Numbered from the stretch's first letter, positions 5,639-52,386 are shown. The stretch is DNA of 64,000 nt from Acidimicrobiales bacterium (GCA_049513455.1 JBEKWB010000015.1:4029-68028); one strand, 5' to 3'. The notes: a model not told the origin generated them from the sequence alone. Numbers and translations are program-made.

Positions 5639-5722
5639 GCGCTCCGTAGGGACTTGACAGCAGATACGTTTGGAAGTCTAACGTAAGAGTGTAGAACGAA
5701 ACTAGGGGTACGAAGGGGGAGC

Positions 5723-28263: not shown

Positions 28264-29649
28264 TTACAAGGAGTTCAGCTGCGCCACCTGCGCTGCGGAC
28301 AGCGGGACGACGTTCTTGGGGTTGCAGTTCCAGATGGACTGCGTGGGATCGGTGAGCTTCTTGTCGTAGACGATCCCCTTGGTCGTCAACTGGAGCATGG
28401 CGAAACACGGGGAAGGTTGTGGGTTCTCGTTGGAGAGCGTCAACTTGGCGATGGGTGCCTCTATGCCCCCGGCGTCCCAGCTCTTTGTGTCGGCGGCGTG
28501 GGTCAGCACGCAGCTCACCGTGAGGTTGCTGGCGCCGCAGGCCGAGGCCGCCTTGGCCCACAGCAGCCACGCCTCGGCCGATTCCTCGTCGTCGAAGTCG
28601 ATGGTGTCGCCCTTGGAGTATTTGTGCATGGTGGTGACCAGCTCTTCGGTCGAGGGGTTCTGCGAGGCCTGCGCGACGGGCCACCACTGCGTCTCGACGT
28701 AAACGGGGGGCAGGCTGGGGTTGGCCGCCACGGCCTGCTGCGTCTGGGTGTTGTCGAACTGGACTCCCAGCAAAACGAAGGCGGGGTGATACCCGGCAGT
28801 GGCCATCGCCTGGGCGAAGGGGGTGAAGTTACCGCTGTCGGCGGGCCACAGGGCCTGGACCCCCTTTTGCTGGTACTGCTCGACGTAGGGCGCCCAGTTC
28901 TCCACCGAAGTCGGGGGCTCGGGGAAGTCCACGACCTTCCAACCCTGTGCCTCGGCGCCGAACTCGTACTTTGTTTCGGACTGGAGGATGGAGGGGGAGT
29001 CTTCCGCACCCATGCCGGCTTCCTTGACCGCTTTCGGGTAGGCCTTGGCCAAAGCCCCGAACCATCCCGAGGAAATGGAGTCCACGTTGAGCCCGGTCGG
29101 GTCGACCTGGTCGGTGGCAAGATCGGAGGCGTTCGAGACGACGTAGCCGCTGAGATTTCCCAGCCCGCACTTCTCACGGATGGGCACGGACGGCTGGTCG
29201 AGGGCCATGCCACCACCGACGGCCATGAAGTCGCTCTGGCAGGCCGCCGTCGCTTGCTGCGCCGCGTTGAACAGCGCGGCGTCGCGGTTGTCGATCACGA
29301 TTTTGCGGCCGTTGATGCCCCCCGCCGCGTTGCACCAGTCCGCGAACGCGGTGGCCTGCTGGACGAATTCGATCTCGAGTCCGGGGACAATGGTGTTGGA
29401 GGCGTCGTTGAACACGGCGATGTTGATGGTCTTGTCGCCCACACCGCGCACCGAGGAGGCGCCGCCCGGACCCGGTTCGCAAATTTTGCCGACCCCGGGC
29501 CACACGCCGCTCGAACTCGACGCCGAGGTCGCCGCCGCAGCGGTCGTCGACGAGGCTGCGACATAGGTCCCGGCGATCATCATGGTCGCCAGGGCCAGCG
29601 GCAGTAGGGACTTTCGAAGCTGGATCAGCCCTTTGCAGAACATCCTCAT
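28264..29649 (-). CDS. secreted solute-binding protein, Leu/Ile/Val-type (PBP1) fold, 8 conserved Cys
   Basis: ATG at 29649 (MRMFCKGLIQLRKSLLPLALATMMIAGTYVAASS..) after AAGGGGGG, with a signal-like hydrophobic leader. About 78% identical to 41524-42927. The ORF-track 516-aa version is an upstream extension. Confidence 0.85.
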   Translation of the reverse strand: MRMFCKGLIQLRKSLLPLALATMMIAGTYVAASSTTAAAATSASSSSGVWPGVGKICEPGPGGASSVRGVGDKTINIAVFNDASNTIVPGLEIEFVQQATAFADWCNAAGGINGRKIVIDNRDAALFNAAQQATAACQSDFMAVGGGMALDQPSVPIREKCGLGNLSGYVVSNASDLATDQVDPTGLNVDSISSGWFGALAKAYPKAVKEAGMGAEDSPSILQSETKYEFGAEAQGWKVVDFPEPPTSVENWAPYVEQYQQKGVQALWPADSGNFTPFAQAMATAGYHPAFVLLGVQFDNTQTQQAVAANPSLPPVYVETQWWPVAQASQNPSTEELVTTMHKYSKGDTIDFDDEESAEAWLLWAKAASACGASNLTVSCVLTHAADTKSWDAGGIEAPIAKLTLSNENPQPSPCFAMLQLTTKGIVYDKKLTDPTQSIWNCNPKNVVPLSAAQVAQLNSL

Positions 29650-29720
29650 ACCCCCCTTTGTGATCGGATCGGTAACCCGGCCTGAGATCGGCTGCAGCAT
29701 CGTAGCTGACCGCGCCGCTA

Positions 29721-29734
29721 CTTGTCCGTACAGC
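29721..29734. promoter_or_regulatory. site of the recurrent palindrome: CTTGTCCGTACAGC (11/14 to CTTGTCCGGACAAG)
   Basis: About 72 nt upstream of the SBP start. Contains the exact 10-mer TGTCCGTACA, also present at 39225-39234 and 39315-39324 and as its reverse complement at 34330-34339. Confidence 0.5.
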
Positions 29735-29814
29735 GGAACCTCGTCCCTGTTGCCTTCCCGTGCTCGCGCGCTCGTGCGGTCGTGGGATCGGTCGATGGTT
29801 CGCTCCTCAGTCAC

Positions 29815-31869: not shown

Positions 31870-33084
31870 TCACGCGACGATGCCGCCGTCGACGAGCGCC
31901 TCCCAGCCCTCGTTGGTCACGCCGAGGAGTGATTGGAGGATGTCGCGGGTGTCGTGACCGAAGTCCGGTGCCGGTCCGATAGGTCGCTCACCGACACCGT
32001 CGACCGCAATCCGCCATGGCAGCTTCGGAAGGATCGCCGGGCCGAGCTCGGTGTGGGTCACCTCCCCCAAGAAGTCGTCGGCGACCAGCTGCTGATCGGC
32101 CAGCAGGTCCTCGGCCGTGCGCACCGGCGCGGCCGCCACGCCGACCCCTTGCAGCGCCGAGGCCAGTTCGCCCGCATCGTGCCCGGGCGTCACGCTCGCG
32201 ATCGCCTCGTCGAGTGCCGTCCGGTTCTGCCACCGCAGCTCGAGCGACGCAAACCGTGGATCGTCGGCCAGTCCAGCCAGCTCGAGCACATCGAGCAGCG
32301 CCAGCCACTGCTCGTCGTCGAATGTCGCAACTGCCACCCAGCGATCGTTCCCGGCGCAGGGGTAGCAACCGTGCGGCGCCGCGCCGGGCTCATCATTGGC
32401 CCGCCGGGGCACGGCTTCGTCGTACAGCGCGGCATGAATTACCGGCTCGGGAGCGACTGCGATCATCGCCTCCAACATGGCGGTGTCGATGAATTCACCG
32501 TGACCGGTCTCTTCGCGTCGGTGCAGTGCTCCAAGGATGGACAGCACCGCGACCTGACCCCCGATGACGTCGGCATAGGTTCCGAAGAGCTGCTCCGGTG
32601 GCCCGTCGCGATATCCCGTCGCCGCGCTCAAGCCGCTGAAGGCATGGATGTTGGGGCCCAGCGCCTGAAAGGCTGCGAAATCACCCACGTACCCATAACC
32701 GGTGATCACCGCCATGACGATCCTCGGGTTGATCGCGCTCAGCGCCGCGTAGTCGAGGCCGAACTGTTCGAGCACGCCGGGGCGAAAATTGGCGACGACC
32801 ACGTCGCTGGCGGCGACCAGGTCGCGGCACAACTGCTGGCCCTCGGGCGTGGCGATGTCGAGGCAGCAGCTTCGTTTCATCAGGTTCGTGGCGGCGAAGA
32901 CCGCGCTGTTGTTCAACGTGGGTTCGAGGTTCGCCTTCAATTGCGACAGGCGGAAGGCGTCCGGCCGTGCCGGCGACTCGATCTTGATGACCTCGGCCCC
33001 CAGGCTGCCGAGCCACATGGTGCAGTGAGGTCCCGAGACGAAGTGGGTGAAATCGATGACCCGCACACCCTCGAGTGGTAACAC
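31870..33084 (-). CDS. family III CoA-transferase
   Basis: In-frame GTG at 33084 after GAGGAG. VLPLEGVRVIDFTHFVSGPHCTMWLGSLGAEVIKIESP. The start lies 13 nt downstream of the stop of the preceding transferase gene. Confidence 0.85.
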   Translation of the reverse strand: MLPLEGVRVIDFTHFVSGPHCTMWLGSLGAEVIKIESPARPDAFRLSQLKANLEPTLNNSAVFAATNLMKRSCCLDIATPEGQQLCRDLVAASDVVVANFRPGVLEQFGLDYAALSAINPRIVMAVITGYGYVGDFAAFQALGPNIHAFSGLSAATGYRDGPPEQLFGTYADVIGGQVAVLSILGALHRREETGHGEFIDTAMLEAMIAVAPEPVIHAALYDEAVPRRANDEPGAAPHGCYPCAGNDRWVAVATFDDEQWLALLDVLELAGLADDPRFASLELRWQNRTALDEAIASVTPGHDAGELASALQGVGVAAAPVRTAEDLLADQQLVADDFLGEVTHTELGPAILPKLPWRIAVDGVGERPIGPAPDFGHDTRDILQSLLGVTNEGWEALVDGGIVA

Positions 33085-33097
33085 GGACCCCAGCTCC

Positions 33098-34237
33098 TCA
33101 GTTCGACTCGGCCGGCCGCGCCGGGTACGCACGGCGGCTCGGCAACCCGGGCATGGAAGTCGTCCTCCCGTCCACCTGCACCGGTTGCCAAAATCCCCGG
33201 GCCCCGAGGACGCCCACCGCCAGCACGTCGCCACCCTCGTTCACCGGTGCGCACGGGATCCGCCAGCCTTGGCACAGGTAGAGCAGATGTTCCTTTTCGA
33301 ACTCGGCCGCCCACTCCTCCAGCCGCGGCACGATCTTGACCCAATTGCGATACCGCAGCGCCGGTGTGGCCAGGTCCTGGTCCTCCATCCATTCCGGATG
33401 GTCGAGCAGTCCCTTCAGCGAGTCCCACTGCTGCACGCCTCCCCACGCGAGGTTGAAATAGCCGTCCTTGCACTTGAGGTTGCGATGGTCGACCATGCCG
33501 CCGGCCCCCCGGCCGAACGCGAGATCGCGCCCCATGCCGCCGCCGTAGTAGGCGAAGGTGCCGAGACTCTGCCGGTAACTGTTGACCAGGGCTTCGTGGC
33601 AGCTCACGTCGACGGTGACGACGGCAGACGCCGGGTGACGGTCGCGCGCCAAGACGGCGGCACACACGTTGATGGCAGCGACGAGACCACCCACGAAGGA
33701 TCCCTGGTGGCTGCCCAGCCGCAGCGGCGCCATCGTGCGGGGATCAGCCACCAACCCCGGCACGGCATGGCCGGGACCGGCTCCATGGAAGAGGGTGAGA
33801 TCCGAGGCCAGGTCGTCGCGCCGCGGGCCGCCGCGGCCGTGCGGCGTGACCGATGCCACAATCGGAACCGGGTGATCGCCGACTGAGGTGACATCGATTC
33901 CGGCGGTGGCCAGCAACGGCTCGCGGAAGTCTTCTACCACCACGTCGACGCCGGATACCAACTCCGCCAGCGCGGCGCGACCGGCGGGCCCCGACAGGTC
34001 GATGGGCCGCCTCTCTTTTGCGCGGCCCAGGTAGTCGCGGTAGATCTCGGAGTCACTCAGCCGTGCGTCGAGAAACGCCGATGCCGCGCCATCAGGTCCA
34101 TCCACGATCTCCACGCGTACGACGTCGGCCCCCATCCGCTCCAGAGTGGCGGCGCAGAACGCGGCGCTCAGCGACTGCGAACAGTCGAGCACCTTTACCC
34201 CCACGAGGGAACCGTCGGTCGCGGGCACAGTCGCCAT
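33098..34237 (-). CDS. family III CoA-transferase
   Basis: In-frame ATG at 34237. MATVPATDGSLVGVKVLDCSQSLSAAFCAATLERMGADVVRVE. Confidence 0.85.
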   Translation of the reverse strand: MATVPATDGSLVGVKVLDCSQSLSAAFCAATLERMGADVVRVEIVDGPDGAASAFLDARLSDSEIYRDYLGRAKERRPIDLSGPAGRAALAELVSGVDVVVEDFREPLLATAGIDVTSVGDHPVPIVASVTPHGRGGPRRDDLASDLTLFHGAGPGHAVPGLVADPRTMAPLRLGSHQGSFVGGLVAAINVCAAVLARDRHPASAVVTVDVSCHEALVNSYRQSLGTFAYYGGGMGRDLAFGRGAGGMVDHRNLKCKDGYFNLAWGGVQQWDSLKGLLDHPEWMEDQDLATPALRYRNWVKIVPRLEEWAAEFEKEHLLYLCQGWRIPCAPVNEGGDVLAVGVLGARGFWQPVQVDGRTTSMPGLPSRRAYPARPAESN

Positions 34238-34327
34238 TGCGGCACGACACTGCCACGGCGCACCTCGTGTCCGCAATCGACGACGCGCGTTCTTGCGCCT
34301 GGCCGGCCTGCCCTCCTATGGTGCAGT

Positions 34328-34395: not shown

Positions 34396-35418
34396 ATGGC
34401 GAAATGGTTCGATCGATACTACGGCCCCGACCTCGTGGTCGGCGGGCCGGAGTCCGCCCAACGGACCCTGGAGGAGAAGCTCGGCATTCCCGCAGGCCAG
34501 AGCATGCGGATGACCATACATGGCGTCGGTTTGACGGTGGCGTACCTGGCCGTGAACGAGGACGAGTCGCTCAGCTCCTCGTGCATTCAGCTGATGGGGA
34601 TCAAGCCGCTGGCGCACGACGAACCGCAGGGCGAAATCGGCCGCGACGTACGCAACATGCTGCTCGCCTACATCACGGCGCAGCGAATGGATCGCCCCAT
34701 CGTCACCCACGTGCAGGCGCTGTCGGCTCCGACCGAGGACGACATCGGCGCGATCACCGAAATGCTCAAGTCGCGCGGCGTCCCTCACCTGTGCCGCATG
34801 AAGAATGTCTACATCGGGCTCGTCCAGGAGGACAATGGCCGGATCCACTATGACCCGAGCGCCGATGCCGGCACATACCTCGAATGGGCGCCGACCGTGC
34901 AGACCGACTTTCCCGGCTTCGTCCTGCCCACGTACTTGCCGGAGAACCCAGAGGTGGCGGAGGTGGCGCCGGGATCCATGGTCGGGGTCATCGCCCGGAC
35001 CCAGATCGTACACAGCGCCCAGGCGGTGATCGATCGATTCCAGTGGATGCTCGACTGGCCCGAGGACGGTGACATCGAGTACGTCAAGGGTGACGGGCAG
35101 CGATCCATCGTGATCAAGCCGATCAACGGGCTTAGCGCGGTCTGGGAGTTTGTGGAGCCGACCCGTCCCGACAGCCGGGCCGGCCAGGTTCTCGAGCGCT
35201 ACGGCGAAGGTCCGTGGACGATCCGCATCGGAGTGCACGGGCTGGACGCCAAGCTCGGCGACCTCGAGTCGCGCGGGACACGGTGGAGCGAAATCGGCGA
35301 GGGGCCCAAGGGGGCACGTCGGGTGGCGGTCAACCGTTGGGACCTCCGCGGCATCCCGATCGAACTCGAGGAGGTGCCAGTCGTCTACCGGGGCATCAGC
35401 CAGGGACGGACGGCCTGA
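34396..35418 (+). CDS. hypothetical protein, possibly VOC/glyoxalase-fold in the C-terminal part
   Basis: In-frame ATG at 34396 (MAKWFDRYYGPDLVVGG..). The C-terminal WEFVEPTRPDSRAGQVLERYGEGPWTIRIGV resembles glyoxalase-like domains. The ORF-track 466-aa version extends upstream into the divergent promoter. Confidence 0.5.
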   Translation: MAKWFDRYYGPDLVVGGPESAQRTLEEKLGIPAGQSMRMTIHGVGLTVAYLAVNEDESLSSSCIQLMGIKPLAHDEPQGEIGRDVRNMLLAYITAQRMDRPIVTHVQALSAPTEDDIGAITEMLKSRGVPHLCRMKNVYIGLVQEDNGRIHYDPSADAGTYLEWAPTVQTDFPGFVLPTYLPENPEVAEVAPGSMVGVIARTQIVHSAQAVIDRFQWMLDWPEDGDIEYVKGDGQRSIVIKPINGLSAVWEFVEPTRPDSRAGQVLERYGEGPWTIRIGVHGLDAKLGDLESRGTRWSEIGEGPKGARRVAVNRWDLRGIPIELEEVPVVYRGISQGRTA

Positions 35419-36251: not shown

Positions 36252-37025
36252 ATGAACGGATTGCAGGGCAAGGTCGGCCTCGTCGTCGGGGGGGCCAGCG
36301 GGGTCGGTCGGGCGACCTCTATTCGGTTGGCCGAGGAGGGCGCCAAGGTCGTTGTCGGCGACATCAACGAGCCCGGAGCGGAGGCCGTGGCCAACGAGAT
36401 CCGGGCCGCCGGCGGGGACGCCGAGTCGTGCCGGGTCGACCTGCGCCGGGAGGACGACGTCAAAGCGCTCGTTGCCTTTACGATCGAGAAATTCGGCCGG
36501 GTCGATCTTCTGCACAACGTCGCTTACAACCCGGTGCATGTCACCACGAAGGATTTCGACATCACCACCACGGAGCTCGACGACTACGACGAGATGCACG
36601 CGGTGACCCTGCGCGGCTACGTCCTCACCTGTCGCGAGGTCATCCCGCACATGGTGGCACAGGGTGGCGGCGCCATCGTCAACACCTCCTCGCTCGCCGC
36701 CCTCCGCTCCCTACCGACCGGCTTGCGGTTCTCGTACTCGATTGCGAAGAGCGGTCTCGGTCCGCTGTCGCAGCACATCGCCGTTCGCTACGGCAAGCAG
36801 GGTGTGCGCGCCAACACGGCCGCTCTCGGCATGGTCGTCTCGGAGAGCTTCAAGGCGACAATGAGCCCGGACCGGGTCCAGACGTCCGCCGACTCGGTCC
36901 TCGTGCCCAATCCGGGAGTGCCCGAGGACATCGCGGCGGCGATCGTGTTCCTCTTGTCCGACGATGCCCGCTATATCACTGGACAGACGATCAATATCGA
37001 CGGCGGTTCATCGGCCCGGCTCTGA
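36252..37025 (+). CDS. SDR family oxidoreductase, paralog of 48219-48992
   Basis: 257-aa ORF. MNGLQGKVGLVVGGASGVGRATSIRLAEEGAKVVVGDIN, YSIAKSG. Confidence 0.9.
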   Translation: MNGLQGKVGLVVGGASGVGRATSIRLAEEGAKVVVGDINEPGAEAVANEIRAAGGDAESCRVDLRREDDVKALVAFTIEKFGRVDLLHNVAYNPVHVTTKDFDITTTELDDYDEMHAVTLRGYVLTCREVIPHMVAQGGGAIVNTSSLAALRSLPTGLRFSYSIAKSGLGPLSQHIAVRYGKQGVRANTAALGMVVSESFKATMSPDRVQTSADSVLVPNPGVPEDIAAAIVFLLSDDARYITGQTINIDGGSSARL

Positions 37026-37036: not shown

Positions 37037-38182
37037 TCACTGCGGCCGGGCTCGTGGCAACCCCAGCCGGCGCTCGGCAATTATCTCGCGCATGACCTCG
37101 CTCACGCCGCCACCGATGAGGCGGACGGGGGAGTCGCGCAGGCAGTAGTTGAACCAGCCCCCTGACACCGTTCCCTCCTCCTCGAAGGGGATCACGGCGG
37201 CGGGGCCCACCATGGAGAAGAAGTCGGCTGCGGCCCGCGCATACGCTTCAGTTTCGAACAGCTTCGAACCCGGTCCCCAGCCCGGGTTCTTCTCTACGCC
37301 CGTGGCCGTCGCCCAGGCCGAGCGCTGGGCCAGCAGCGTGGCGACTTCGAGGTCGATGGCGGCCCGGGCGAGCCGCTCGCGGACGATCGGGTCATCGACC
37401 ATCCGGTCGCCGTCGGGCGCCTCCGACCGTTCGGCCCAGAGGATGGCTTGGCGCACCAGTTCGTGCAGGTCGGTGCTCCCTTCGCCCGCCTGTTCGCGTG
37501 AGAGCGCAACTTTCATCACGTCCCAACCACCGTCGACCTCGCCGATGCGGGCCGAGTCCGGTACGTGGACCTCGCGGTACAGGGTCATGTTCGTGTGGTG
37601 ATAGGCCAGCGTGTGCAGCGGGCGCACCTCCACGCCGGGGGCATCGATCGGTACGAGGAACACCGTGAGGCCCTTGTGCTTGGGGGCGTCGGTGTTCGTG
37701 CGGGTGAGCAGGAAGACGTGCGTCGCATGCTGGGCGTTGCTGGTGTAGATCTTCTCCCCGTTGATCACCCAGTGGTCGCCCTGGCGGACGGCACGAGTGC
37801 GGGCCGCGGCGAGGTCCGAGCCTGCGTCCGGCTCGGTGAGTCCGAGGGCGATCAGGTAGTCGCCCTCGCGCATCCGGGGCGCCACCTCGGCTTTTTGTTG
37901 CTCCGTCCCGATCTGCTCCAGGGTCTCGGCGATCATCCGGGTGGGTGCGTGGGTGGTGAGTTCGATGCCTGCCTGTGCAGCCTCCTGGAAGAACGCGCTG
38001 GTCTCGTAGGCGTCCCGGTCGGCCAGATGCTCGCGCTGCCAGCGCAGGACGGCTCGAAAGAACTCCTTGTCGTGCGGACGTTCGAAGCGGCGGCTCCGCA
38101 ACTCGTCGGGGTAGGCCTCGGCAAAGAAGGCCCGCACCTTGTCCCGGAAGTCGTCCGCCTGGGGCGGAACCGAGAACTCCAT
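37037..38182 (-). CDS. acyl-CoA dehydrogenase, alpha-type partner of 38182-39189
   Basis: 381-aa ORF with LTEPDAGSDLAAARTRA, WVINGEKIYTSNA and IGGGVSEVMREIIAERRLGLPRA. The start ATG shares one base with the upstream stop (TGATG). Confidence 0.9.
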   Translation of the reverse strand: MEFSVPPQADDFRDKVRAFFAEAYPDELRSRRFERPHDKEFFRAVLRWQREHLADRDAYETSAFFQEAAQAGIELTTHAPTRMIAETLEQIGTEQQKAEVAPRMREGDYLIALGLTEPDAGSDLAAARTRAVRQGDHWVINGEKIYTSNAQHATHVFLLTRTNTDAPKHKGLTVFLVPIDAPGVEVRPLHTLAYHHTNMTLYREVHVPDSARIGEVDGGWDVMKVALSREQAGEGSTDLHELVRQAILWAERSEAPDGDRMVDDPIVRERLARAAIDLEVATLLAQRSAWATATGVEKNPGWGPGSKLFETEAYARAAADFFSMVGPAAVIPFEEEGTVSGGWFNYCLRDSPVRLIGGGVSEVMREIIAERRLGLPRARPQ

Positions 38183-39189
38183 CAGCTGCTCCTCCGCTCA
38201 CCGAACATCCTCGTCGACAACGTTGCGAGCTCGGAGCGGGGGTCGCCGAGAGCCAGCGGCCAGGCGGCGGCACGCCGGAAGTACAGCTGGATGTCGTGCT
38301 CGAGCGTGTAGCCGATCCCGCCGTGAAAATGGAGGCACTCCGCGGTGACCCGCTGGGCCAGGCTCGTCGCGTACGAGTACGCCATTGAGGTGAGGCGCCC
38401 CGCGGCGTCATCGTCGCTGTCGATGGCCCAGGCCGCCTTGTGGACCAGAAAGCGGGCGCCGTCCAGGTCGTTGATCGAGTCGGCGAGGCGATGGGCCACG
38501 GTCTGGAACCAGCCGATCGGCACGCCGAAGGCCTTGCGCTCCTTCACGTAGGCCACCGTCATGCGGTGCGCTTCGCCGGCCAGCCCGACCAATGCCGCCG
38601 AGAGAAGAACCTTCCAGTCGTCGACGGCCAGCTCGAACACCGGGTGGGCTGGCGCGCCGGCGACCAGAACGGTCCGCCGGGTTCCCGGGTTTCTGGTGGC
38701 AATTGGGCTCGAGCCCAAGTTGCTGAGAAATCCCTCACCCGGTACGCCGGCGAGGTCGGTGAGCACCAGCGTGTCATTGATGAGGGCGACGGCGCCGTCG
38801 GCCACCGCACCCGCGCCGAGGAGGCGCAGCGATCCATCGCGTTCTGCTGGTCGCAAGGCGATCGTCACGATCCCCGACTCGGGGAGGTCGATACCCGCCC
38901 GGTCAAGCGCGCGGGCAGCCGTCACCGCTTCGAGCAACGGCACCGGAGCGAGTCGCCGTCCGTATTCCTCGGCCACGACGATCAGCTGGCTCATCGTCGC
39001 CGGGGCACCGTCGGTCGCCCCGCTCGACGCCATGTCCGGTATGCCGAGGTCACCGAGGCGTCGCCAGAGCTCGGAACTGAAACCGACCGGCTCGGCGGCG
39101 CGCACCGCGGCCGACGTGGCGTGGTCGTCGAAAAGACGGCCGACGGCCGCCTGCAACTCGCTCTGGTCGTCCGTGAGTGAAAAGTCCAT
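38182..39189 (-). CDS. acyl-CoA dehydrogenase family protein, short beta-type subunit candidate
   Basis: In-frame ATG at 39189 (MDFSLTDDQSELQAAVGRLFDDH..), 335 aa. Has AFGVPIGWFQTVAHRLAD and FHGGIGY. The C-terminus (QLYFRRAAAWPLAL) lacks the GGTxEIQ segment. Colinear with 11511-12548. Confidence 0.8.
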   Translation of the reverse strand: MDFSLTDDQSELQAAVGRLFDDHATSAAVRAAEPVGFSSELWRRLGDLGIPDMASSGATDGAPATMSQLIVVAEEYGRRLAPVPLLEAVTAARALDRAGIDLPESGIVTIALRPAERDGSLRLLGAGAVADGAVALINDTLVLTDLAGVPGEGFLSNLGSSPIATRNPGTRRTVLVAGAPAHPVFELAVDDWKVLLSAALVGLAGEAHRMTVAYVKERKAFGVPIGWFQTVAHRLADSINDLDGARFLVHKAAWAIDSDDDAAGRLTSMAYSYATSLAQRVTAECLHFHGGIGYTLEHDIQLYFRRAAAWPLALGDPRSELATLSTRMFGERRSS

Positions 39190-39222
39190 CGCCGCTCTTA
39201 TTTCGGACTTGTCCTCGCGTGA

Positions 39223-39236
39223 GTTGTCCGTACAGA
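39223..39236. promoter_or_regulatory. site of the recurrent palindrome: GTTGTCCGTACAGA (10/14, exact TGTCCGTACA core)
   Basis: In the ACAD-pair/APH-pair divergent region. An extra half-site CTTGTCC lies at 39208-39214. Confidence 0.45.
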
Positions 39237-39312
39237 TCGTGAAACTTATGCACTGTGCGCGCGCGGCGCAAGGACGCTGGGCTCCCTTGCCCATCCAGAT
39301 GGCCGAAACTAT

Positions 39313-39326
39313 GGTGTCCGTACAAC
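39313..39326. promoter_or_regulatory. site of the recurrent palindrome: GGTGTCCGTACAAC (10/14, exact TGTCCGTACA core)
   Basis: Second site in the same divergent region, 27 nt upstream of the preferred APH start codon. Confidence 0.45.
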
Positions 39327-39352
39327 TGATCTCCACGCGCAGACGAGGGACC

Positions 39353-40405
39353 ATGCCGATCGACGAACTCGCCCCTGCCCCCAACGATCTCAGTGAGGTG
39401 TTATCGCCGGCCTGGCTCAGCCGAGCGCTGCAGGGAGCCTTTCCCGGCGTGATCGTGGGTAACATCGAGGTAGTAGAGAGCCTCGAATCTACGGCGCGCA
39501 AGGTCCGCTTCACCGTCCGCTACACGGATACCGGCGGGCAGGACGCGCCGACGGCCTTCTGCGTCAAAGGATATTTCAACCCCGAGTACGTGCAGTTCGG
39601 TTCTACCGGTATCCACGAGGTCCACTTCTACGACCGCCTGGCGGGGCGCGTTCCCATCCAAGTGCCCACGGCGCGCTACACCGGCATTGATCCCGAGTCG
39701 CGGCACGGACTCGTCCTCATGGACGACATCGTGGCGAGGGGAGGGGAGTTCTTCGACCAGCTCGGCTGGTACGACTCCACCACGGTGCGGACGTCCGTGA
39801 CGGAGCTGGCCGGCCTGCACGCACGATTCTGGGAGGACATGCTGGCGGACGAGGAGTGGCTGGCGCCGAAAATCCGCAGGTTCCCGGGCTACATCAGCGA
39901 CGAAGTCCTGGACGACCTGCTCCGCGGCCCCCGGGCCGAGGGCCTCCCGGATTCGATGCGTGACGCGGCGCGGCTAAAGGCAGGGATGTTCGCTCTGGCG
40001 GATCGCTATGCGGGCAAGCCGCGTACGCTCTTGCACGCCGACCTCCACCTGGGCAACCTCTATCGTTCGGCTGACGGCCGCATCGGTTTCATCGACTGGC
40101 AGAACTACGAGTTCGGGCACTGGTCCATGGACGTGGCCTACCATCTCGGCACCGCTCTGCGGCCGTCCGTGCGGGCCGAGAGCGAGCGGAGCCTGCTGGA
40201 GTACTACCTGGAGCAGCTGGCCGAGCGGGGAGGTCCGGTGCTGGCGCGCCACGAGGCGTGGGAGGACTACCGGGCCGCCCTTCTCTACGGATACTTCCTG
40301 TGGGGGATGACCCGCCGCGTCGAACCACATATCACGGAGCAGCTGACCCAACGCCTCGGTCGGGCAGTCCTCGACCACGACAGCCTCGAGGTCCTGGGTG
40401 TCTGA
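39353..40405 (+). CDS. phosphotransferase (APH/choline-kinase-like) family protein
   Basis: In-frame ATG at 39353 (MPIDELAPAPNDLSEVLSPAWL..). Catalytic loop LLHADLHLGNL and IGFIDWQN. An alternative ATG at 39299 is possible. The 614-aa ORF-track version is antisense to the ACAD gene. Confidence 0.8.
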   Translation: MPIDELAPAPNDLSEVLSPAWLSRALQGAFPGVIVGNIEVVESLESTARKVRFTVRYTDTGGQDAPTAFCVKGYFNPEYVQFGSTGIHEVHFYDRLAGRVPIQVPTARYTGIDPESRHGLVLMDDIVARGGEFFDQLGWYDSTTVRTSVTELAGLHARFWEDMLADEEWLAPKIRRFPGYISDEVLDDLLRGPRAEGLPDSMRDAARLKAGMFALADRYAGKPRTLLHADLHLGNLYRSADGRIGFIDWQNYEFGHWSMDVAYHLGTALRPSVRAESERSLLEYYLEQLAERGGPVLARHEAWEDYRAALLYGYFLWGMTRRVEPHITEQLTQRLGRAVLDHDSLEVLGV

Positions 40406-41513
40406 CAGCCCCGGCGCTCCCGACTTCTCGCCACGCGCGTCTCCCCGGTTCGTCAAAGGACCACGCGATCCCGAAGAGACCCGCGTCGCCATCGAGCGGT
40501 GGTTGCGGGGTCGCCTACAGATGCCGGTTCAGGTCTCCGGCCTCGACATCCCCACCGGCGCCGGGGTGTCGAACGAGACCTTTTTGTTCCGGGCGCGCCG
40601 GGACGTGGACGGCCGCCCGATGGAGAGCGAGTACGTCCTGCGCCTCCACCCCTCGCCTGATTACCAGGTCTTCTTCGACCCGGAGTTCCGCATGCAGTTC
40701 GACCTGCTTAGTCGCCTCCGGGAGGTCAGTGACGTCCGGGTGCCCGAGGTGCATTGGTTCGAGGACGATCCTGCGACCTTCGGCCGGCCCTTCTTCGTGA
40801 TGGAGCGCAAGTACGGGCGGGTCCCGGTGAGCATCCCGCTCTACAACCGTGAGGGCTTCCTGGTCGACGCAACACCCGCCCAGCGACGGCGGGCCTGGGA
40901 AGGTGCAATCGGACAGATGGCGGCCATCCACTCCGTGCCCGTGACAGAAGTCGAGTTCCTCGACCGTCCGCAGTGGGGGGCAACCCCACTGGAGCAGCAA
41001 TTGACCTACTGGCAGAAGGCCGCCGAGTGGGGACTGGAGGACCACTACCTCTCCCAGCTCGACGAGATGATCGCCTGGCTACGGGCGAACCAGCCGGAAG
41101 CGATCGAACGCGGACTCTCATGGGGGGACGCGCGTCTCGGTAATTTGATGTTCGACGAGAGTTTCGATGTCGCAGCCGTGCTGGACTGGGAGCAGGCGTC
41201 ACTCATAGGGCCCACTGCCGACCTCGCCTGGTGGTTGTTCTTCGACGAGATGTTCAGCACCGGGCAGGGTGTCCCGCGGCTCGCCGGGATGGGCGACCGC
41301 GACGAGACGCTCGAATTGTGGAGTTCGTTGTCAGGCCGCATCCCCCACGACCTGCACTGGCACGAGGTCTTCGTCGGCTACAAAATGGCGAACCTGGCCA
41401 TACGTACGACCGTTGTGCTGGCGTCCGCTCGCGGCGCCGCGCCGGTCACGACGCTCAACATCGTCAATGGTGCCCTCGGGCGCCTGGACCTTCAGCCGGT
41501 CGAGAGTCTCTGA
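40398..41513 (+). CDS. phosphotransferase (APH-like) family protein
   Basis: 371-aa ORF with LSWGDARLGNLMF and VAAVLDWEQASL. 8-nt overlap with the upstream APH gene. Confidence 0.85.
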   Translation: MSDSPGAPDFSPRASPRFVKGPRDPEETRVAIERWLRGRLQMPVQVSGLDIPTGAGVSNETFLFRARRDVDGRPMESEYVLRLHPSPDYQVFFDPEFRMQFDLLSRLREVSDVRVPEVHWFEDDPATFGRPFFVMERKYGRVPVSIPLYNREGFLVDATPAQRRRAWEGAIGQMAAIHSVPVTEVEFLDRPQWGATPLEQQLTYWQKAAEWGLEDHYLSQLDEMIAWLRANQPEAIERGLSWGDARLGNLMFDESFDVAAVLDWEQASLIGPTADLAWWLFFDEMFSTGQGVPRLAGMGDRDETLELWSSLSGRIPHDLHWHEVFVGYKMANLAIRTTVVLASARGAAPVTTLNIVNGALGRLDLQPVESL

Positions 41514-41523: not shown

Positions 41524-42927
41524 TCACAGCGAGTTTATCTGCGCCTGTTGCGCTGCGGTCAGTTGGACGAGACCCTTGGGATTGCAGTTCCAGATGGACT
41601 GGGTGGGCCGGGTGAGCGCCTTGTCGTAGACGATCCCCTTGGCTTCCACCCTGAGCATGGCGAAACATGGAGAGGGCTGGGGGTCCTCGTTGGACAGCGT
41701 CAATCGTGCAATGGGCGCCTGAATGCCTCCGGCGTCCCAGTTCTTCGTGGCTGTGGCGTGGCTCAGGACGCAGGTCACCGTGAGGCTGCTGCCGCAGGCC
41801 GAAGCCGATTTGGCCCACAGGAGCCACCCCAGTGCCCCGACCTCATTATCGAAGTCGATGGTGTCGCCCTTGGCGTATTTGTGCATGATGGTGACGAGCT
41901 CCTCCGTCGAGGGATTCTGCGCAGCCATCGTGAGTGGCCAAAACCCCGTATAGATGTAGACCGGGGGCAGGCTGGGGTTCGCAGCCACGGCTTGCTGCGT
42001 CTCAGAGTCGGCGAATTGGGGCCCCAATATGACGAAGGCGGGGTGGTACCCGGCCGTGGTCATCGCCTGGGCGAAGGGAGGGAAGTTGGAGGCGTCGGCC
42101 GGCCAGAGCGCCTGGACCCCCTTTTGCTGGTAGTCCTCGACGTAAGGTGCCCAGTTCTCGACCGAGACCGGGGGCTCGAGGAAGTCGACCACCTTCCAAC
42201 CCTCAGCCTCCGCTCCGAACTCGTCCTTCGTCTCCTCCTGGAGGACCGACGGGGTGTCGGCGCCACCCATGCCGGCCAACGTGACCGCCTTCGGGTAGGC
42301 CCGGGCCAACGCAGCGAACCACCCTGCGGTAACCGAGTTCGTGTTGGTGCCCCCTGGGTCGACCTGGTCGGAGGCAAGAATCGATGCATTCGAGACGACA
42401 TAGCCGGTGATCTGTCCCAGCCCGCACTTCTCACGGATCGGGACGGCTGACTCGTCGAGGGCCATGCCGCCGCCGACCGCCATGAAGTCGCTCTGGCAGG
42501 CCGCCGTTGCCTCTTGCGCCGCGTTGAACAGCGCCGCGTCGCGGTTGTCGATCACGATCTTACGCCCGTTGATGCCCCCCGCGGCGTTGCACCAGTCTGC
42601 GAACGCAGTGGCCTGCTGGACGAACTCCACCTCGAGTCCCGGTTGGATGGTGTTCGCGGCGTCGTTGAACACGGCGATGTTGACGGTCTTATCGCCCACA
42701 CCGCGCACCGAGGATGCACCGCCGGGTCCCGGTTCGCATATTTTGCCGACCCCGGGCCAGACGCCGTTCGAGGCGGCGCTCGACGCCAAAGTCCGGCTGG
42801 CCGACGTCGCCGCGCCAGCGGTGGTGGACGCCACGGCCACGAACGTCGCAGTGGCGGTGATGGTGGCCATGGCTATCTGCAGCACCGACCTTCGAAGTTT
42901 GCGTAACCCAGTGCAGGACAATTTCAC
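41524..42927 (-). CDS. secreted solute-binding protein, Leu/Ile/Val-type (PBP1) fold, 8 conserved Cys; paralog of 28264-29649
   Basis: 467-aa ORF. GTG start after AAAGGGGAGGG. Hydrophobic leader IAMATITATATFVAVAS. Long identical blocks with the other copy (GVWPGVGKICEPGPGGASSVRGVGDKT, FVQQATAFADWCNAAGGINGRKIVIDNRDAALFNAAQ). Confidence 0.85.
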   Translation of the reverse strand: MKLSCTGLRKLRRSVLQIAMATITATATFVAVASTTAGAATSASRTLASSAASNGVWPGVGKICEPGPGGASSVRGVGDKTVNIAVFNDAANTIQPGLEVEFVQQATAFADWCNAAGGINGRKIVIDNRDAALFNAAQEATAACQSDFMAVGGGMALDESAVPIREKCGLGQITGYVVSNASILASDQVDPGGTNTNSVTAGWFAALARAYPKAVTLAGMGGADTPSVLQEETKDEFGAEAEGWKVVDFLEPPVSVENWAPYVEDYQQKGVQALWPADASNFPPFAQAMTTAGYHPAFVILGPQFADSETQQAVAANPSLPPVYIYTGFWPLTMAAQNPSTEELVTIMHKYAKGDTIDFDNEVGALGWLLWAKSASACGSSLTVTCVLSHATATKNWDAGGIQAPIARLTLSNEDPQPSPCFAMLRVEAKGIVYDKALTRPTQSIWNCNPKGLVQLTAAQQAQINSL

Positions 42928-42971: not shown

Positions 42972-43889
42972 TCAGAATCCCATCTCTGACCACTGCCGCT
43001 GGATCTCGTTCAGTGCCTCTCGCACGCTGCTCTTGTTGCGTTCGCGCATGAAATTGAACTCGTCATCGCGCCAGACGACGTTGGTGAACAAGGGATGGGC
43101 GATGCTCGTCCAGGTGTCATAGGCCGTGATGCCGAGTAGCTCATAGAAGAGCTGCATGGAGCGGCGGCCCAGCATCAGGTTGTCTGTGGAGTGCCACGCC
43201 ACCATGCGCGCATAGCGGAGTGCTTCGTCCATCAGCTGCTCGGGAGGGACCACCGAGTCGACGACTCCCCATTGTTCGAGCTGGTCGGCCGTGAAAAGCC
43301 GGCCGGTCAGCAGCATCGACCGCGCCCGGTTGGGGCCCAGCTTCAGTGCGAGGAGCGGCCACCCCGGTGAGAAACCGGCAAATCCGATCCTCGACTCCGG
43401 CTCCCCGAAACGGGCCCCGGCGCCCGCGACGATCAGGTCGGATGAAATGGCGAAGTGAAAGCCCGCGGCGACACAGGGCCCGTTCACCGCGGCGATGACC
43501 GTCTTGTCACACTTGAGAAGGTTCGGCGCACCGAACGACGCCATACGCATCCGTCGCGACTGCGGCAACCTCTCGCCCGGTTTGAGTCCGGCGTCCTCGA
43601 CGGGCGTCCGTCGCAGGTCCACCCCGGCGCAGAACGAGTCGCCGGCACCGGTCAGGACGATCACCTTGATGTCGTCATCGTCCTCGGCTCGCTCGACCTT
43701 GCGCCGCAGCTCTAAGAAACTGTCGGGCGCCAGCATCGCGTTGCGCCGCTCCGGGCGGTTCAGCGTGATCACCGCGATGTGGGAATCGACTTTCTCGTAC
43801 AGCACGAGGTCGTCGATCTGTTCTGCAGTGAGGTTGGTGAGGCCGGCGTCCTGCGGCCGTCCGGGCGAATCCGGCTTGCTCTCCGTCAC
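42972..43889 (-). CDS. enoyl-CoA hydratase/isomerase family protein
   Basis: Preferred start is GTG 43889, after GGGGGA with a 6-nt spacer. Has ITLNRPERRNAM, LTGAGDSFCAGVD and AVNGPCVAAG. The ORF-track start at 43979 would place a palindrome site (43946-43959) inside the gene. Confidence 0.8.
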   Translation of the reverse strand: MTESKPDSPGRPQDAGLTNLTAEQIDDLVLYEKVDSHIAVITLNRPERRNAMLAPDSFLELRRKVERAEDDDDIKVIVLTGAGDSFCAGVDLRRTPVEDAGLKPGERLPQSRRMRMASFGAPNLLKCDKTVIAAVNGPCVAAGFHFAISSDLIVAGAGARFGEPESRIGFAGFSPGWPLLALKLGPNRARSMLLTGRLFTADQLEQWGVVDSVVPPEQLMDEALRYARMVAWHSTDNLMLGRRSMQLFYELLGITAYDTWTSIAHPLFTNVVWRDDEFNFMRERNKSSVREALNEIQRQWSEMGF

Positions 43890-43945
43890 GGTAGGTCCCC
43901 CATCGTCGGGCGAGGGTCTCGGCGAGCCGAGCGGATCGCCGTCAA

Positions 43946-43959
43946 TCTGTCCGGACAAT
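43946..43959. promoter_or_regulatory. site of the recurrent palindrome: TCTGTCCGGACAAT (11/14)
   Basis: Shares the 13-mer TGTCCGGACAATA with the site at 56709-56722. Lies between the ECH/SBP operon (minus) and the ADP-forming ligase (plus). Confidence 0.5.
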
Positions 43960-44085
43960 AACACGCCGGCATCGCCCAAAGTCCATGCGTCGCTTCATCA
44001 TCCTTGCGCTGAGCAGCGAGCTGTCGTGCCACGCGCAGGGTGGTGATGACCGCGCGGTCTGCCGGCCCAGTCGTCAAGCGACTTT

Positions 44086-48087: not shown

Positions 48088-48218
48088 TAGTTAGTGTTGG
48101 CAACCTGGTCACTGAACGTTGATCGCTACTGTCGCTGATCACCGAACTACGGGGAGTTGCTCATGGCGGACGAGCTGTCGCTCGAGTTGGTGGCCAACGG
48201 GGGGAACGGATTGAGGAC

Positions 48219-48992
48219 GTGAACGGCTTGCGCGGGAAGGTTGCCATTGTCATCGGGGGGGCCAGCGGGGTCGGCAAAGCCACCGCGCTGCGACTCGGTG
48301 AGGAGGGCGCCCTGGTGGTGGTGGGCGATATCAACGAAGGCGGTGCCACCACCGTCGCCGAGAGCATCTCGACAGCCGGTGGGACGGCGCAGGCCCGCAG
48401 GGCGGACATCAGTGACGAGGACCAGGTCAATGATCTGGTGGACTTTGCCCACCGTACCTTTGGCCGGGTCGACCTCCTGCATAACGTCGCGGCGGACCTG
48501 GGGGACACATTGTTGGCCGACACCGATGCGGAGACGGTACCTCTCGACGTTTTCGACCGGACGATCGATGTCAATCTCCGCGGCTACTTGCTGTCGATCC
48601 GGGCCGTGCTCCCGCTCATGGTCGAGGCGGGCGCGGGCTCCATTGTCAACACGTCATCGTTGGCGGCCGACCGCGCCCTCGCCACGGGCGCTCGTGTGTC
48701 GTACTCGATCTCCAAGAGCGGAGTCCACGCCCTGACCCGGCACGTGGCTATCCGCTACGGGCGGCAGGGGATCCGGTGTAACACGGCGTGCCTGGGCCTC
48801 GTCTTGTCCGAGGCGCTCCGGGCCACGGTACCGCCAGAGAGGATCGCCCGTTACGTGGAGCAGGTACCGAACACCAATCCCGGTGAGCCCGCTGCCATCG
48901 CTGCCGCGGTGGCGTTCCTCCTCTCGGATGACGCCCGTTACATCAACGGCCAGACGATCAACATCGACGGAGGGTCTTCGGTAAAGCAGTAA
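48219..48992 (+). CDS. SDR family oxidoreductase, paralog of 36252-37025
   Basis: 257-aa ORF. MNGLRGKVAIVIGGASGVGKATALRLGEEGALVVVGDIN, YSISKSG. Confidence 0.9.
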   Translation: MNGLRGKVAIVIGGASGVGKATALRLGEEGALVVVGDINEGGATTVAESISTAGGTAQARRADISDEDQVNDLVDFAHRTFGRVDLLHNVAADLGDTLLADTDAETVPLDVFDRTIDVNLRGYLLSIRAVLPLMVEAGAGSIVNTSSLAADRALATGARVSYSISKSGVHALTRHVAIRYGRQGIRCNTACLGLVLSEALRATVPPERIARYVEQVPNTNPGEPAAIAAAVAFLLSDDARYINGQTINIDGGSSVKQ

Positions 48993-49037
48993 ACGTTCCA
49001 CTACGCTCCGATCTCACCATGCACGAAAGGTCATTCA

Positions 49038-50246
49038 ATGGATTTCGAACTTTCAGCTGAACAGCAGGACCTCGTCACGCGGGCTGGTGCCGCCGGCGCA
49101 GAATGGCAGGCGTTCGCCGAGGAGTGGGACCGGAGCAATTACGCTCCGATCGGCGAGGTGACCAAGCGAATGGGCGAACTCGGCTTCCTCGGGATAACCA
49201 TTCCGAAGGAGTTCGGGGGCCAGGGCCGCACCAACGTCGAGTACACCCTCGCCGTCGAGGAGATCACCCGACGTGCCACGACGTGGATCGCGGCCGAGCC
49301 CCTCTTCAGGACGTCGGCGGCCGGACCGACCATCTGCCTGATGTCGAAGAACCACGTGGCCAAGGAGAAATTCCTGCCGCGCATCGTCACCGGAGAGCTC
49401 GGTTGCACCATCGGCATCACCGAGCCGGCGCACGGATCCGACATGACCTCCCTGGAGACGACCGCCGAACGGCGCGGCAAGGAGTTCGTCCTTAACGGGG
49501 AGAAGCATCTCATCACCGGGGAGAAGCATCTCATCACGGGCGCCGTCGAGGACTCTTTGTATGCGACGTTCGTCCGCTTCGACGGGATCCCGGGTGCCAA
49601 AGGCGTCGGTGCGGTGATGGTCGAGAAGGGGACACCGGGTTTCGAGATGGAGCGGGGACCCGAGTTTGTGGGGTCGCGTGGAATTCCCCATGGGAACTTG
49701 CGGTTCACCGACTGTCACGTGCCGGAGGATAATTTCCTTTTCGGACCCGGCGAGTTCGCCGATCTGATGAAGGCCTTCAACATGGAGCGCTTGCACAACG
49801 CGGCGTCATCGATCGGATCCTCCGAAGCCGTCTTCGATGCCACGTTGGAGTACGTGCAGACACGGAGACAGTTCGACCGGGACATCATCGAATTCCAGGC
49901 GATCCAGCATGAGGTGGCCGACATGTGGACGAAGATCGAGGCGGCCCGGTGGTTGGTCTATCGCGCCGCGGCGACGTCCATCGATGGCAATTTCCCACGA
50001 CCGATGGACGTCACCCTGGCCAAGTACTACTCCAACCAGGTGATGTTCGATGTCACGAGCAGTGGCGTCCTGCTGCACGGGGGGATCGGTACGACGCTCG
50101 GATGCGCCATGCAACGCATTCATCGTGACTGCCTGGTGTACCGAATTGCTGGCGGCTCGCCCCACATCACCCGCAACACCATTGCGAGCCAGTTGATGCC
50201 AAATCGCCGCTTCAGTCAGCGCCCGGAAAAGGCCACGGCCGGATGA
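49038..50246 (+). CDS. acyl-CoA dehydrogenase (carries an in-frame 7-aa tandem duplication)
   Basis: 402-aa ORF with ITEPAHGSDMTSLETTA, FQAIQHEVADM and LHGGIGT. GEKHLIT-GEKHLIT is encoded by the 21-bp repeat at 49497-49538. Confidence 0.9.
   Translation: MDFELSAEQQDLVTRAGAAGAEWQAFAEEWDRSNYAPIGEVTKRMGELGFLGITIPKEFGGQGRTNVEYTLAVEEITRRATTWIAAEPLFRTSAAGPTICLMSKNHVAKEKFLPRIVTGELGCTIGITEPAHGSDMTSLETTAERRGKEFVLNGEKHLITGEKHLITGAVEDSLYATFVRFDGIPGAKGVGAVMVEKGTPGFEMERGPEFVGSRGIPHGNLRFTDCHVPEDNFLFGPGEFADLMKAFNMERLHNAASSIGSSEAVFDATLEYVQTRRQFDRDIIEFQAIQHEVADMWTKIEAARWLVYRAAATSIDGNFPRPMDVTLAKYYSNQVMFDVTSSGVLLHGGIGTTLGCAMQRIHRDCLVYRIAGGSPHITRNTIASQLMPNRRFSQRPEKATAG
49497..49538 (+). repeat. 21-bp tandem duplication (2 copies, 20/21 identical) within the ACAD coding sequence
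   Basis: GGGGAGAAGCATCTCATCACC GGGGAGAAGCATCTCATCACG, read directly. In frame. Confidence 0.9.
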
Positions 50247-52343: not shown

Positions 52344-52386
52344 GCGGCAACTGCACGCCTGATATCGGGAGTCCCACCCGCCCGTC

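Follow-up and report, generated by a model that had tools for sequence, protein, structure and literature searches.

Two overlapping APH-fold kinase genes as a co-inherited unit in an acyl-CoA catabolic island of an Acidimicrobiales bacterium

Kinases that activate a hydroxyl group on a lipid have reportedly been recognised only recently, with LvaA described in 2017, 25-HSK, the 25-hydroxysteroid kinase, in 2020-21 and ACAD10/ACAD11 in 2024-25. LvaA and the kinase domains of ACAD10/11 phosphorylate 4-hydroxyacyl-CoA for elimination (PMC12440821), while 25-HSK phosphorylates the tertiary alcohol of a steroid side chain prior to phosphate elimination (PMC8449060). Here we analyse a 64,000-nucleotide stretch of DNA from an Acidimicrobiales bacterium (GCA_049513455.1 JBEKWB010000015.1:4029-68028; hereafter the window, G+C ~65%), in which two overlapping genes for APH-fold kinases, K1 and K2, are divergent from two genes encoding the alpha and beta subunits of an acyl-CoA dehydrogenase (ACAD). 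Judged from comparison of sequences, the conserved unit is the kinase pair, not the kinases plus the ACAD.

The window resembles the LvaA/LvaB/LvaC system of Pseudomonas putida and ACAD10/ACAD11 (PMC12440821, PMC11342911) in that an APH-like kinase lies beside an ACAD, a short-chain dehydrogenase/reductase (SDR) and CoA-activating enzymes. It differs in encoding two kinases where these systems have one (or one plus the small LvaB), in having no kinase-ACAD fusion and in lacking an ACAD with the hallmarks of phosphate elimination. K2 shows detectable homology to the kinase domain of ACAD11, yet is closer to 25-HSK of Sterolibacterium denitrificans (9fsg; PMC8449060), with which it shares the APH fold, an Arg replacing the N-lobe Lys and the WGDAR.GN...LDWE loop. 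Unlike K2, 25-HSK is encoded alone without a K1-type partner and belongs to an anaerobic pathway of molybdenum (Mo) enzymes; it is a monomer that is active alone, on the free steroid and not on a CoA ester (PMC8449060). K2, for its part, falls in a clade of its own (100/100 bootstraps), is always paired with K1 and is found among enzymes acting on CoA thioesters. Rv3168 of Mycobacterium tuberculosis (3ats) is likewise related to K2 (31% identity over 304 aa) and groups with 25-HSK as sister of the K2 clade, but is annotated as a putative aminoglycoside phosphotransferase and is not known as paired; a literature search for its function returned nothing decisive.

The kinase genes and their conservation as a pair

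K1 (39353..40405, + strand) encodes a 350-aa kinase of the EcKL/APH fold (Pfam APH 7.9e-12, EcKL 2.3e-10), and K2 (40398..41513, +) a 371-aa APH-fold kinase (Pfam APH 5.2e-28). K1 is identical (100%) to a database protein assigned by NCBI to an Acidimicrobiales MAG. K2 begins with a GTG inside the final codons of K1, giving an 8-nt overlap (GTGTCTGA), an arrangement that shows the two to be translationally coupled at the level of gene layout. Both catalytic loops read by the first-pass annotation of this DNA are present and intact, as are all four genes at the positions it gave. In K1, HADLHLGN and IDWQ supply H228, D230, N235 and D248; an alignment of homologs shows that K72, E89, the H228-x-D230 motif, N235 and D248 are conserved family-wide, and these invariant residues indicate that K1 is an active kinase. 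In K2, GDARLGN and LDWE supply D244, N249 and D263 within a full loop reading WGDARLGN...LDWE.

To survey relatives, a K1 profile built from an 11-sequence alignment was scanned against one genome per GTDB species, and the resulting 80 loci were probed with four window proteins by tblastn. An adjacent K2 was found in 21 of the 22 loci with a K1 homolog at least 42% identical, the exception being locus L088. The pair occurs in Acidimicrobiia, many species of Nocardia, Frankia, other Actinomycetota, Acidobacteriota and several sphingomonads, as well as in one deltaproteobacterial and one Burkholderiales metagenome-assembled genome (MAG). K1 precedes K2 in the clade of the window, while the order is mostly K2-then-K1 elsewhere and some sphingomonads carry the genes divergently or convergently. 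Where genes were called, the overlap is 4-8 nt (8 nt in L005 and L086, 4 nt in L004). K1 homologs below about 38% identity are solitary (Rhodococcus, Mycobacterium, Williamsia). Both partners retain their catalytic loops across 29 aligned sequences (the window and 28 further pairs), with the K2 loop WGD(A/S)R.GN...DWE nearly invariant. The pairwise distance matrices of K1 and K2 correlate with r = 0.88, a value reached by 0 of 2000 Mantel permutations. This correlation shows co-inheritance as a unit, not physical interaction.

Variations on the pair were also seen. Two K1-type kinases replace K1 plus K2 in L024 (8787-11017), L025 (8842-11023) and L051 (10001-12535), hence paired paralogous kinases may be a more general theme in the K1 family. 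K2 is split by frameshifts in two MAG contigs (L087 11158-12188 and L007 11059-12131), which may reflect assembly error or pseudogenisation. A 632-aa protein (P0312), considered as a possible K1-K2 fusion, was found to carry no K2 domain.

K2 has eight matches among PDB sequences. The strongest are 25-HSK (9fsg, E 2e-36, 129 bits), identified in the fold-search table as 25-hydroxy steroid kinase with bound 25-OH-cholest-1,4-diene-3-one, and Rv3168 (3ats, E 6.6e-36, 127 bits). These are followed by 9o56, deposited as an aminoglycoside phosphotransferase (E 2.3e-15, 59.5 bits), 3dxp, deposited as a 'putative acyl-CoA dehydrogenase' (E 2.8e-12, 49.4 bits), the ACAD11 entries 8v3v (E 1.3e-10, 44 bits) and 8v3u (E 1.6e-09, 40.3 bits), and the macrolide kinases 5ih0 and 5igu (E about 0.004, 19 bits). 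By BLASTP, K2 is 31% identical to both 25-HSK (over 303 aa) and Rv3168 (over 304 aa), and 26% identical to both 3dxp (over 269 aa) and ACAD11 (over 209 aa). In a neighbour-joining tree (298 columns), K1-paired K2 sequences are monophyletic in 100/100 bootstraps and sister to {25-HSK, Rv3168} in 99/100, with {ACAD11, 3dxp, 9o56} next; the kinase comparisons and the tree were made without LvaA.

The tree shows K2 to lie, as far as these alignments go, in the branch of lipid-hydroxyl kinases that includes the ACAD10/11 N-domain. Its predicted place is not within the ACAD10/11 clade proper but nearer to 25-HSK and Rv3168 than to ACAD11, and the tie to 25-HSK is best described as family-level relatedness, not orthology. 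The first-pass comparison of both kinases to those of ACAD10/11 thus holds for K2 in so far as it is homologous and occupies a neighbouring branch, while K2 itself sits in the 25-HSK/Rv3168 branch and K1 shares only the fold. Clustering with true aminoglycoside or homoserine kinases, which would have spoken against the initial proposal, was not seen for K2: the only resistance kinases among its PDB matches are the macrolide phosphotransferases at 19 bits, the NCBIfam APH(3') model scores 19.7 bits against a cutoff of 205, and no resistance- or homoserine-kinase model matches significantly, with K1 giving marginal matches only. K2 is hence predicted to be neither an aminoglycoside nor a homoserine kinase. 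At the position of R176, a residue contacting CoA in ACAD11, K2 has Gln and 25-HSK has Arg. This one position was considered as a predictor of CoA-ester use and set aside as not diagnostic, since Arg is also found in 25-HSK, a free-steroid enzyme.

K1 is the more isolated of the two. It has no match to PDB sequences at E < 0.01 and only marginal matches in NCBIfam. Its AlphaFold2 (AF2) model (pLDDT 94.6) matches only the generic choline-kinase/APH/MTR-kinase fold in a fold search, with TM about 0.5-0.6 and 13-16% identity, so that K1 appears to be related to the ACAD10/11 kinases by common fold only. The family is of moderate size, with 212 clusters (50% identity) at E <= 1e-30 and 4180 at E <= 1e-3. 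K1 and all of its homologs match EcKL, often together with DUF1679. In its founding activity, EcKL (PF02958/PF07914) phosphorylates a hydroxyl on a steroid side chain. The Pfam match of K1 spans the catalytic core only (residues 212-291). In insects, EcKL has been tied to the metabolism of steroid hormones and xenobiotics (PMC10859841). A literature search for a characterised bacterial EcKL found none, and no contig encoding the Novosphingobium K1 homolog P0060 is on record.

The divergent ACAD pair and the shared operator

ACAD-beta (38182..39189, - strand) is a 335-aa protein with N and C domains and no middle domain by Pfam, while the 381-aa, ChsE4-like ACAD-alpha (37037..38182, -) has N, middle and C domains. 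The genes overlap by 1 nt (TGATG), with the alpha start on the beta stop and a GGAGG 8 nt upstream. By phmmer, the top PDB relatives of ACAD-alpha are Tcur3483 (6wy8_B, 2.1e-53) and ChsE4 (4x28_A, 2.2e-50), and those of ACAD-beta are Tcur3481 (6wy8_A, 6.9e-27) and ChsE5 (4x28_D, 1.9e-19). The pair therefore matches, chain for chain, ChsE4-ChsE5 of M. tuberculosis (FadE26-FadE27; 4x28) and Tcur3483-Tcur3481 of Thermomonospora curvata (6wy8), including the beta subunit without a middle domain; by the phmmer E-values this likeness is at family level only. No NCBIfam equivalog cutoff is reached, the IpdE2 match of ACAD-beta included. The heteromeric appearance noted in the first pass is thus well founded, the best matches being chains of solved heterotetramers, and the pair is of predicted heteromeric, alpha2beta2-like type.

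The Glu of LSRE in ACAD-alpha aligns with that of LNHE in ChsE4 (4x28_A) and Tcur3483 (6wy8_B), which we take to be the ChsE4 catalytic base E247 on helix G. As in both of these proteins, the position equivalent to E376 of medium-chain acyl-CoA dehydrogenase (MCAD) is occupied by GGG (IGGGVSEV compared with FGGGTNEV). The pair has the look of a true dehydrogenase acting on a bulky acyl-CoA. In the first round of beta-oxidation of the sterol side chain, ChsE4-ChsE5 acts as the dehydrogenase of (25S)-3-oxocholest-4-en-26-oyl-CoA (PMC8204306). Genes for steroid-ring degradation (KshA, KstD, Hsa) are absent from the window, hence the substrate of the ACAD pair need not be a sterol.

ACADs that eliminate phosphate are marked by a catalytic Asp at the MCAD-E376 equivalent, an HCMR motif and an upstream phosphate-binding Arg, R626 (PMC12440821). 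ACAD-alpha has no catalytic Asp, no HCMR and no R626 equivalent. With GGG and the ChsE4-type Glu in their place, the suggestion that this pair is the phosphate-eliminating partner of the kinases is not supported. A six-frame search of the window found no in-frame HCMR or DGPDEVH, and none of the 10 ACAD genes examined in the 64 kb is of LvaC/ACAD10/11 type. ACAD_48993 (48993-50246, +) is butyryl/isovaleryl-CoA dehydrogenase-like, with Gly at the E376 position and Glu at that of isovaleryl-CoA dehydrogenase (IVD); its top NCBIfam model is 3-sulfinopropanoyl-CoA desulfinase, at 237 bits against a cutoff of 600. The ACAD at 57937-59289 (+) was considered as an eliminase on account of an Asp at the E376 position (VADGSSEMMR) but rejected, as it has no HCMR. 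Its top PDB matches are ordinary ACADs (186 bits, compared with 93 bits for ACAD11), and it lies downstream of a copy of the operator described below, at 56711.

The neighbourhood is not conserved as kinases plus ACAD. Only in L086-type contigs (L086 and 13 similar contigs), where K1 is at least 83% identical, do orthologs of ACAD-alpha and ACAD-beta (91% and 84% identical) lie divergent from the kinases. At 63-68% K1 identity (L087, L005, L007) the nearby alpha/beta ACADs are ~30% paralogs, or the ortholog lies 9 kb away, and at 40-45% there is no adjacent ACAD. The adjacency behind the partnership of kinases and ACAD that had been proposed for this locus is accordingly confined to close relatives.

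The divergent intergenic region between ACAD-beta and K1 (39190..39352, 163 bp) contains TGTCCGTACA twice, at 39225 and 39315, as had been reported. The copies form operator-like imperfect palindromes. One, AGTTGTCCGTACAGAT (39222..39237), lies nearer ACAD-beta and is conserved in L086; the other, TGGTGTCCGTACAACT (39312..39327), ends 26 nt upstream of the K1 start. A perfect palindrome of the same operator family, TGTCCGGACA (43948..43957), is found upstream of a hydratase gene. With up to one mismatch allowed, the window contains 9 copies of the 10-mer where 1.98 are expected, and 0 of 100 shuffles reach 9. Operator sites at 29723, 34330, 39225, 39315, 43948, 56711 and 61531 are each located at the 5' end of a gene or between divergent genes. 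With the consensus (A/C)(G/C)T-TGTCCG(T/G)ACA-A, they mark at least six promoter regions across 32 kb and imply one regulon, putatively controlled by a repressor.

Both operator copies are present in L086, where K1 is 83% identical, and a single copy in L087 (68%) and L007 (63%). In all three loci the K1-proximal copy lies 30-40 nt upstream of K1. The gene upstream in L087 and L007 is a co-directional CoA-transferase and not the ACAD pair, yet the operator before K1 is kept, and it is also found upstream of hydratase orthologs. Conservation of the operator upstream of K1 orthologs suggests that the kinase operon has an operator of its own and belongs to a regulon spanning much of the window. 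The same conservation bears on the K1 start. The gene caller also proposed a start at 39287; the homologs are all ~350 aa and align from MPIDE, and the operator copy would fall between the two candidate starts, so 39353 was kept. As for the shared divergent promoter claimed in the first pass, the geometry and the two operator copies agree with it, but no sigma-70-type consensus promoter was found in the divergent region, where the scan is uninformative for this phylum; a shared promoter is deduced from geometry. The broader claim of a CoA-thioester catabolic context under one operator is supported.

Neighbours of the pair in relatives and its possible role

The window as a whole is a single large, dense acyl-CoA catabolic island by Pfam annotation, and related loci point in a similar direction. 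Each relative in the K1-then-K2 clade has an ortholog of the SDR at 36252..37025 (+), 53-91% identical, adjoining the kinase pair (5 of 5 loci of the close clade), and SDRs of the 36252/48123 type lie directly downstream of K2 at 53-61% identity in the loci with 63-68% identical K1. The SDR at 48123-48992 (+) and the IVD-type ACAD at 48993-50246 (+) have orthologs (55-61% identity) adjoining the pair in L005 and L007. The crotonase-type enoyl-CoA hydratase at 42972..43979 (-), whose true start is probably ~43889, has EchA19 as its top NCBIfam match, below cutoff; it follows directly after K2 in L086 and L087, the L087 ortholog being 80% identical. A family III CoA-transferase is encoded directly upstream of K1 in L087 and L007; at 28-29% identity to those of the window it appears to represent a recurring family, not an ortholog. 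CoA-transferases of family III recur beside the pair in both clades and in several phyla.

For the 40-45% clade, flanking open reading frames (ORFs) of 21 representative loci were clustered. The recurrent neighbours are SDRs (16 loci), cytochrome P450 (9), one cluster of family III CoA-transferases (8, with copies elsewhere), aldehyde dehydrogenase (7), Amidohydro_2 (5) and an F420H2-quinone-reductase-like protein (5). These contexts suggest the oxidative breakdown, via CoA thioesters, of hydrophobic carboxylates that may be alicyclic, isoprenoid or steroid-like, and they single out no ACAD as the partner of the kinases. Mere proximity of an ACAD means little, because the density of such genes is so high.

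Several details of individual loci are recorded here. In the 40-45% clade, the kinases follow a cassette of an F420H2-quinone-reductase-like protein (PF04075) and a P450 in L004 (5211-9050), L008 (6322-11017) and L088 (6258-9047), the last of which has K1 and no K2; aldehyde dehydrogenase, Amidohydro_2, SDR and CoA ligase or transferase genes lie near this cassette. ChsH2-like and thiolase-like genes are nearby in L004. In L005, a KstD-like flavoprotein gene (6262-7947, -) is divergent from K1 and scores 744 bits with PRK12844 (3-ketosteroid-delta-1-dehydrogenase; cutoff 789), with Rieske oxygenase, P450 and molybdo-hydroxylase genes further upstream.

We tentatively favour a reading in which K1 and K2 form a co-inherited kinase pair within a repressor-controlled regulon and activate a hydroxyl for elimination during the breakdown of bulky CoA-bound lipids. 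The substrate scaffold would be a bulky CoA-activated lipid, maybe an alicyclic, isoprenoid or steroid-side-chain-like carboxylate, on which the conserved SDR next to the pair probably makes or interconverts the hydroxyl of an intermediate, as LvaD does in the lva pathway. ATP-dependent phosphorylation would convert this hydroxyl into a leaving group, and elimination of phosphate would then yield an alkene or enoyl intermediate that returns to beta-oxidation, a logic shared with 25-HSK/25-PSL (25-phosphosteroid lyase), LvaAB/LvaC and ACAD10/11. K1 and K2 could act as a heterodimer joined through an alpha-C interface, or separately, each on its own hydroxyl or stereoisomer of a single scaffold. 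A heterodimer is plausible, and two separate activities remain conceivable given that 25-HSK is monomeric and active alone. The divergent alpha/beta ACAD would be a co-regulated dehydrogenase of ChsE4-ChsE5 type for the same scaffold and not the phosphate eliminator; that role could fall to the hydratase at 42972 or the ACAD at 48993, or elimination could be non-enzymatic or of lyase type.

A number of points weigh against this reading. The identity between K2 and 25-HSK, a lone monomer using free steroid (PMC8449060), is no more than 31%, and no characterised relative of K1 was found by PDB sequence or fold search. A K1-K2 fusion was looked for in the top 150 representatives and not found. 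Such islands are so rich in SDR, hydratase and ACAD genes that adjacency counts for little, and the context of the 40-45% clade (P450, F420H2-reductase-like protein, aldehyde dehydrogenase) fits a non-eliminative role equally well. Substrate, product and eliminating enzyme are, moreover, candidates only.

The proposal made at the outset was that the kinases phosphorylate 3-/4-hydroxyacyl-CoA and the alpha/beta ACAD eliminates the phosphate to give enoyl-CoA, as a split, heteromeric form of LvaA/LvaC or ACAD10/11. The two operons do diverge over 163 bp with two operator copies, in a layout repeated in L086 and its 13 similar contigs; the flanking CoA-transferases, CoA ligase and SDRs recall LvaD/LvaE in the lva operon, and K2 is akin to 3dxp and the ACAD11 kinase domain (E = 1e-10; 26% over 209 aa). 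We nevertheless consider it decidedly unlikely, given that ACAD-alpha has GGG for the Asp, neither HCMR nor R626, and the ChsE4 Glu instead (PMC12440821), that the closest structures (4x28, 6wy8) are true dehydrogenases, that the orthologous ACAD is no longer adjacent once K1 identity falls to 63-68%, nor at 40-45%, and that K2 is nearer to 25-HSK/Rv3168 than to ACAD11. A role other than preparing an elimination, in which phosphorylation of a hydroxylated xenobiotic, antibiotic or lipid serves detoxification, trapping or signalling, as proposed for insect EcKLs and resistance kinases sharing the fold, and the kinases belong to the island through shared regulation only, is unlikely but deserves more weight. 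It draws on the EcKL match of K1 and the link of that family to phosphorylation of steroid hormones and xenobiotics in insects (PMC10859841), on a fold common to aminoglycoside and macrolide kinases, and on the P450, TetR and MFS transporter genes of the 40-45% clade, which resemble detoxification cassettes. It accords less well with the position of the pair within CoA-thioester catabolic operons carrying the operator of the island, with the recurrence of CoA-transferase, SDR, hydratase and ACAD neighbours in several phyla, or with the marginal similarity to resistance kinases (19 bits for K2; APH(3') 19.7 bits, cutoff 205).

Two further explanations concern the division of labour between the kinases. 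In an obligate heterodimer with one working active site, the other paralog would serve as a substrate- or CoA-binding or scaffold subunit, mirroring the alpha/beta ACAD. Translational coupling, co-inheritance, the existence of K1-type/K1-type pairs (L024, L025, L051) and the dimerisation of ACAD11 kinase domains and choline kinases via the alpha-C helix (PMC12440821) are in keeping with such an arrangement. A structural subunit would, however, be expected to lose its catalytic residues, and in none of the pairs has either partner lost the catalytic Asp, the Asn or the metal-binding Asp; with the K2 relative 25-HSK working as a monomer, this makes a single working site very doubtful. The second explanation, sequential phosphorylation to a phosphate ester and then to a diphosphate as the better leaving group, as in isoprenoid chemistry, would account for two different intact kinases always being co-encoded, in either order, and the context of P450 and a ChsE4/5-like ACAD is compatible with isoprenoid-like substrates. 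We know of no APH/ELK-fold kinase of this kind that acts on a phosphate ester, and no sequence feature bears specifically on double phosphorylation. With the monophosphate formed by 25-HSK already of very high group-transfer potential (PMC8449060), diphosphorylation seems highly improbable.

APH-fold kinases were already known to activate lipid hydroxyls in catabolic pathways; what is new is the conserved module of an EcKL-like and a 25-HSK-like kinase. Our literature search turned up neither a catabolic kinase of EcKL type from bacteria nor a kinase pairing of this sort, and nothing on kinases in sphingomonad bile-salt clusters; an expected presence of phosphotransferases in the Chol11 side-chain cluster was not borne out. 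Should the favoured reading of a co-inherited, hydroxyl-activating pair be true, the pair would carry this chemistry into the aerobic catabolism of recalcitrant lipids, beside P450s, CoA-transferases, SDRs and enzymes of beta-oxidation. A more specific version, in our view rather unlikely, is that K1 and K2 form a heterodimeric kinase with two active sites, a widespread aerobic counterpart of the ATP-dependent dehydration by 25-HSK/25-PSL that acts on CoA-activated alicyclic, isoprenoid or sterol-side-chain intermediates, with a putative phospho-lyase in the same regulon. To our knowledge, the eliminating lyase of the steroid case is still not known. If this version is true, finding the lyase of the regulon could also lead towards the 25-phosphosteroid lyase still missing from anaerobic sterol degradation. 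The system is tractable because cultured Nocardia and Sphingomonas strains are among the loci carrying the pair, which opens the search for substrate and lyase. Database annotation of K1 and K2 proteins reads only 'aminoglycoside phosphotransferase family' or 'phosphotransferase family'; genes of these types should not be annotated as aminoglycoside phosphotransferases.

Other features of the catabolic island

The island carries at least 10 ACAD genes in 64 kb (~1 per 6 kb), including a second alpha/beta-type pair at 11472-13701. The first member of this pair (11472-12548, +) is without a middle domain and has a C-terminus (...WPAVLREPRR) like that of the beta subunit at 38182-39189, while the second (12514-13701, +) is of full length. 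Also encoded are at least six crotonase-type hydratases, many SDRs, five family III CoA-transferases, three AMP-forming ligases, one ADP-forming acyl-CoA synthetase, one thiolase and one Amidohydro_2 protein. Two of the CoA-transferase genes (31870-33234 and 33098-34276, both -) lie next to the operator copy at 34330. Four luciferase-like monooxygenases and one P450 complete the set, and the P450s and luciferase-like oxygenases point to aerobic metabolism. No DMSO-reductase-type gene was found in the window by Pfam annotation, and hence no association with a Mo-dependent steroid C25/C26 dehydrogenase. Three TetR regulators are encoded, at 5048-5677 (-), 22719-23444 (-) and 52363-53148 (+).

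Peripla_BP_6 solute-binding proteins number four. One gene (41524-42927, -) sits between K2 and the hydratase and is missing from that position in the 83%-identical relative L086; the others are found at 2011-3606, 7548-9071 and 28264-29814, and all four ORFs have long N-terminal extensions. A conserved ORF of ~340 aa (~34400-35418, +; L086 5034-6056), with no Pfam or NCBIfam match, lies between the CoA-transferase operon and the SDR genes and is divergent from the operator copy at 34330.

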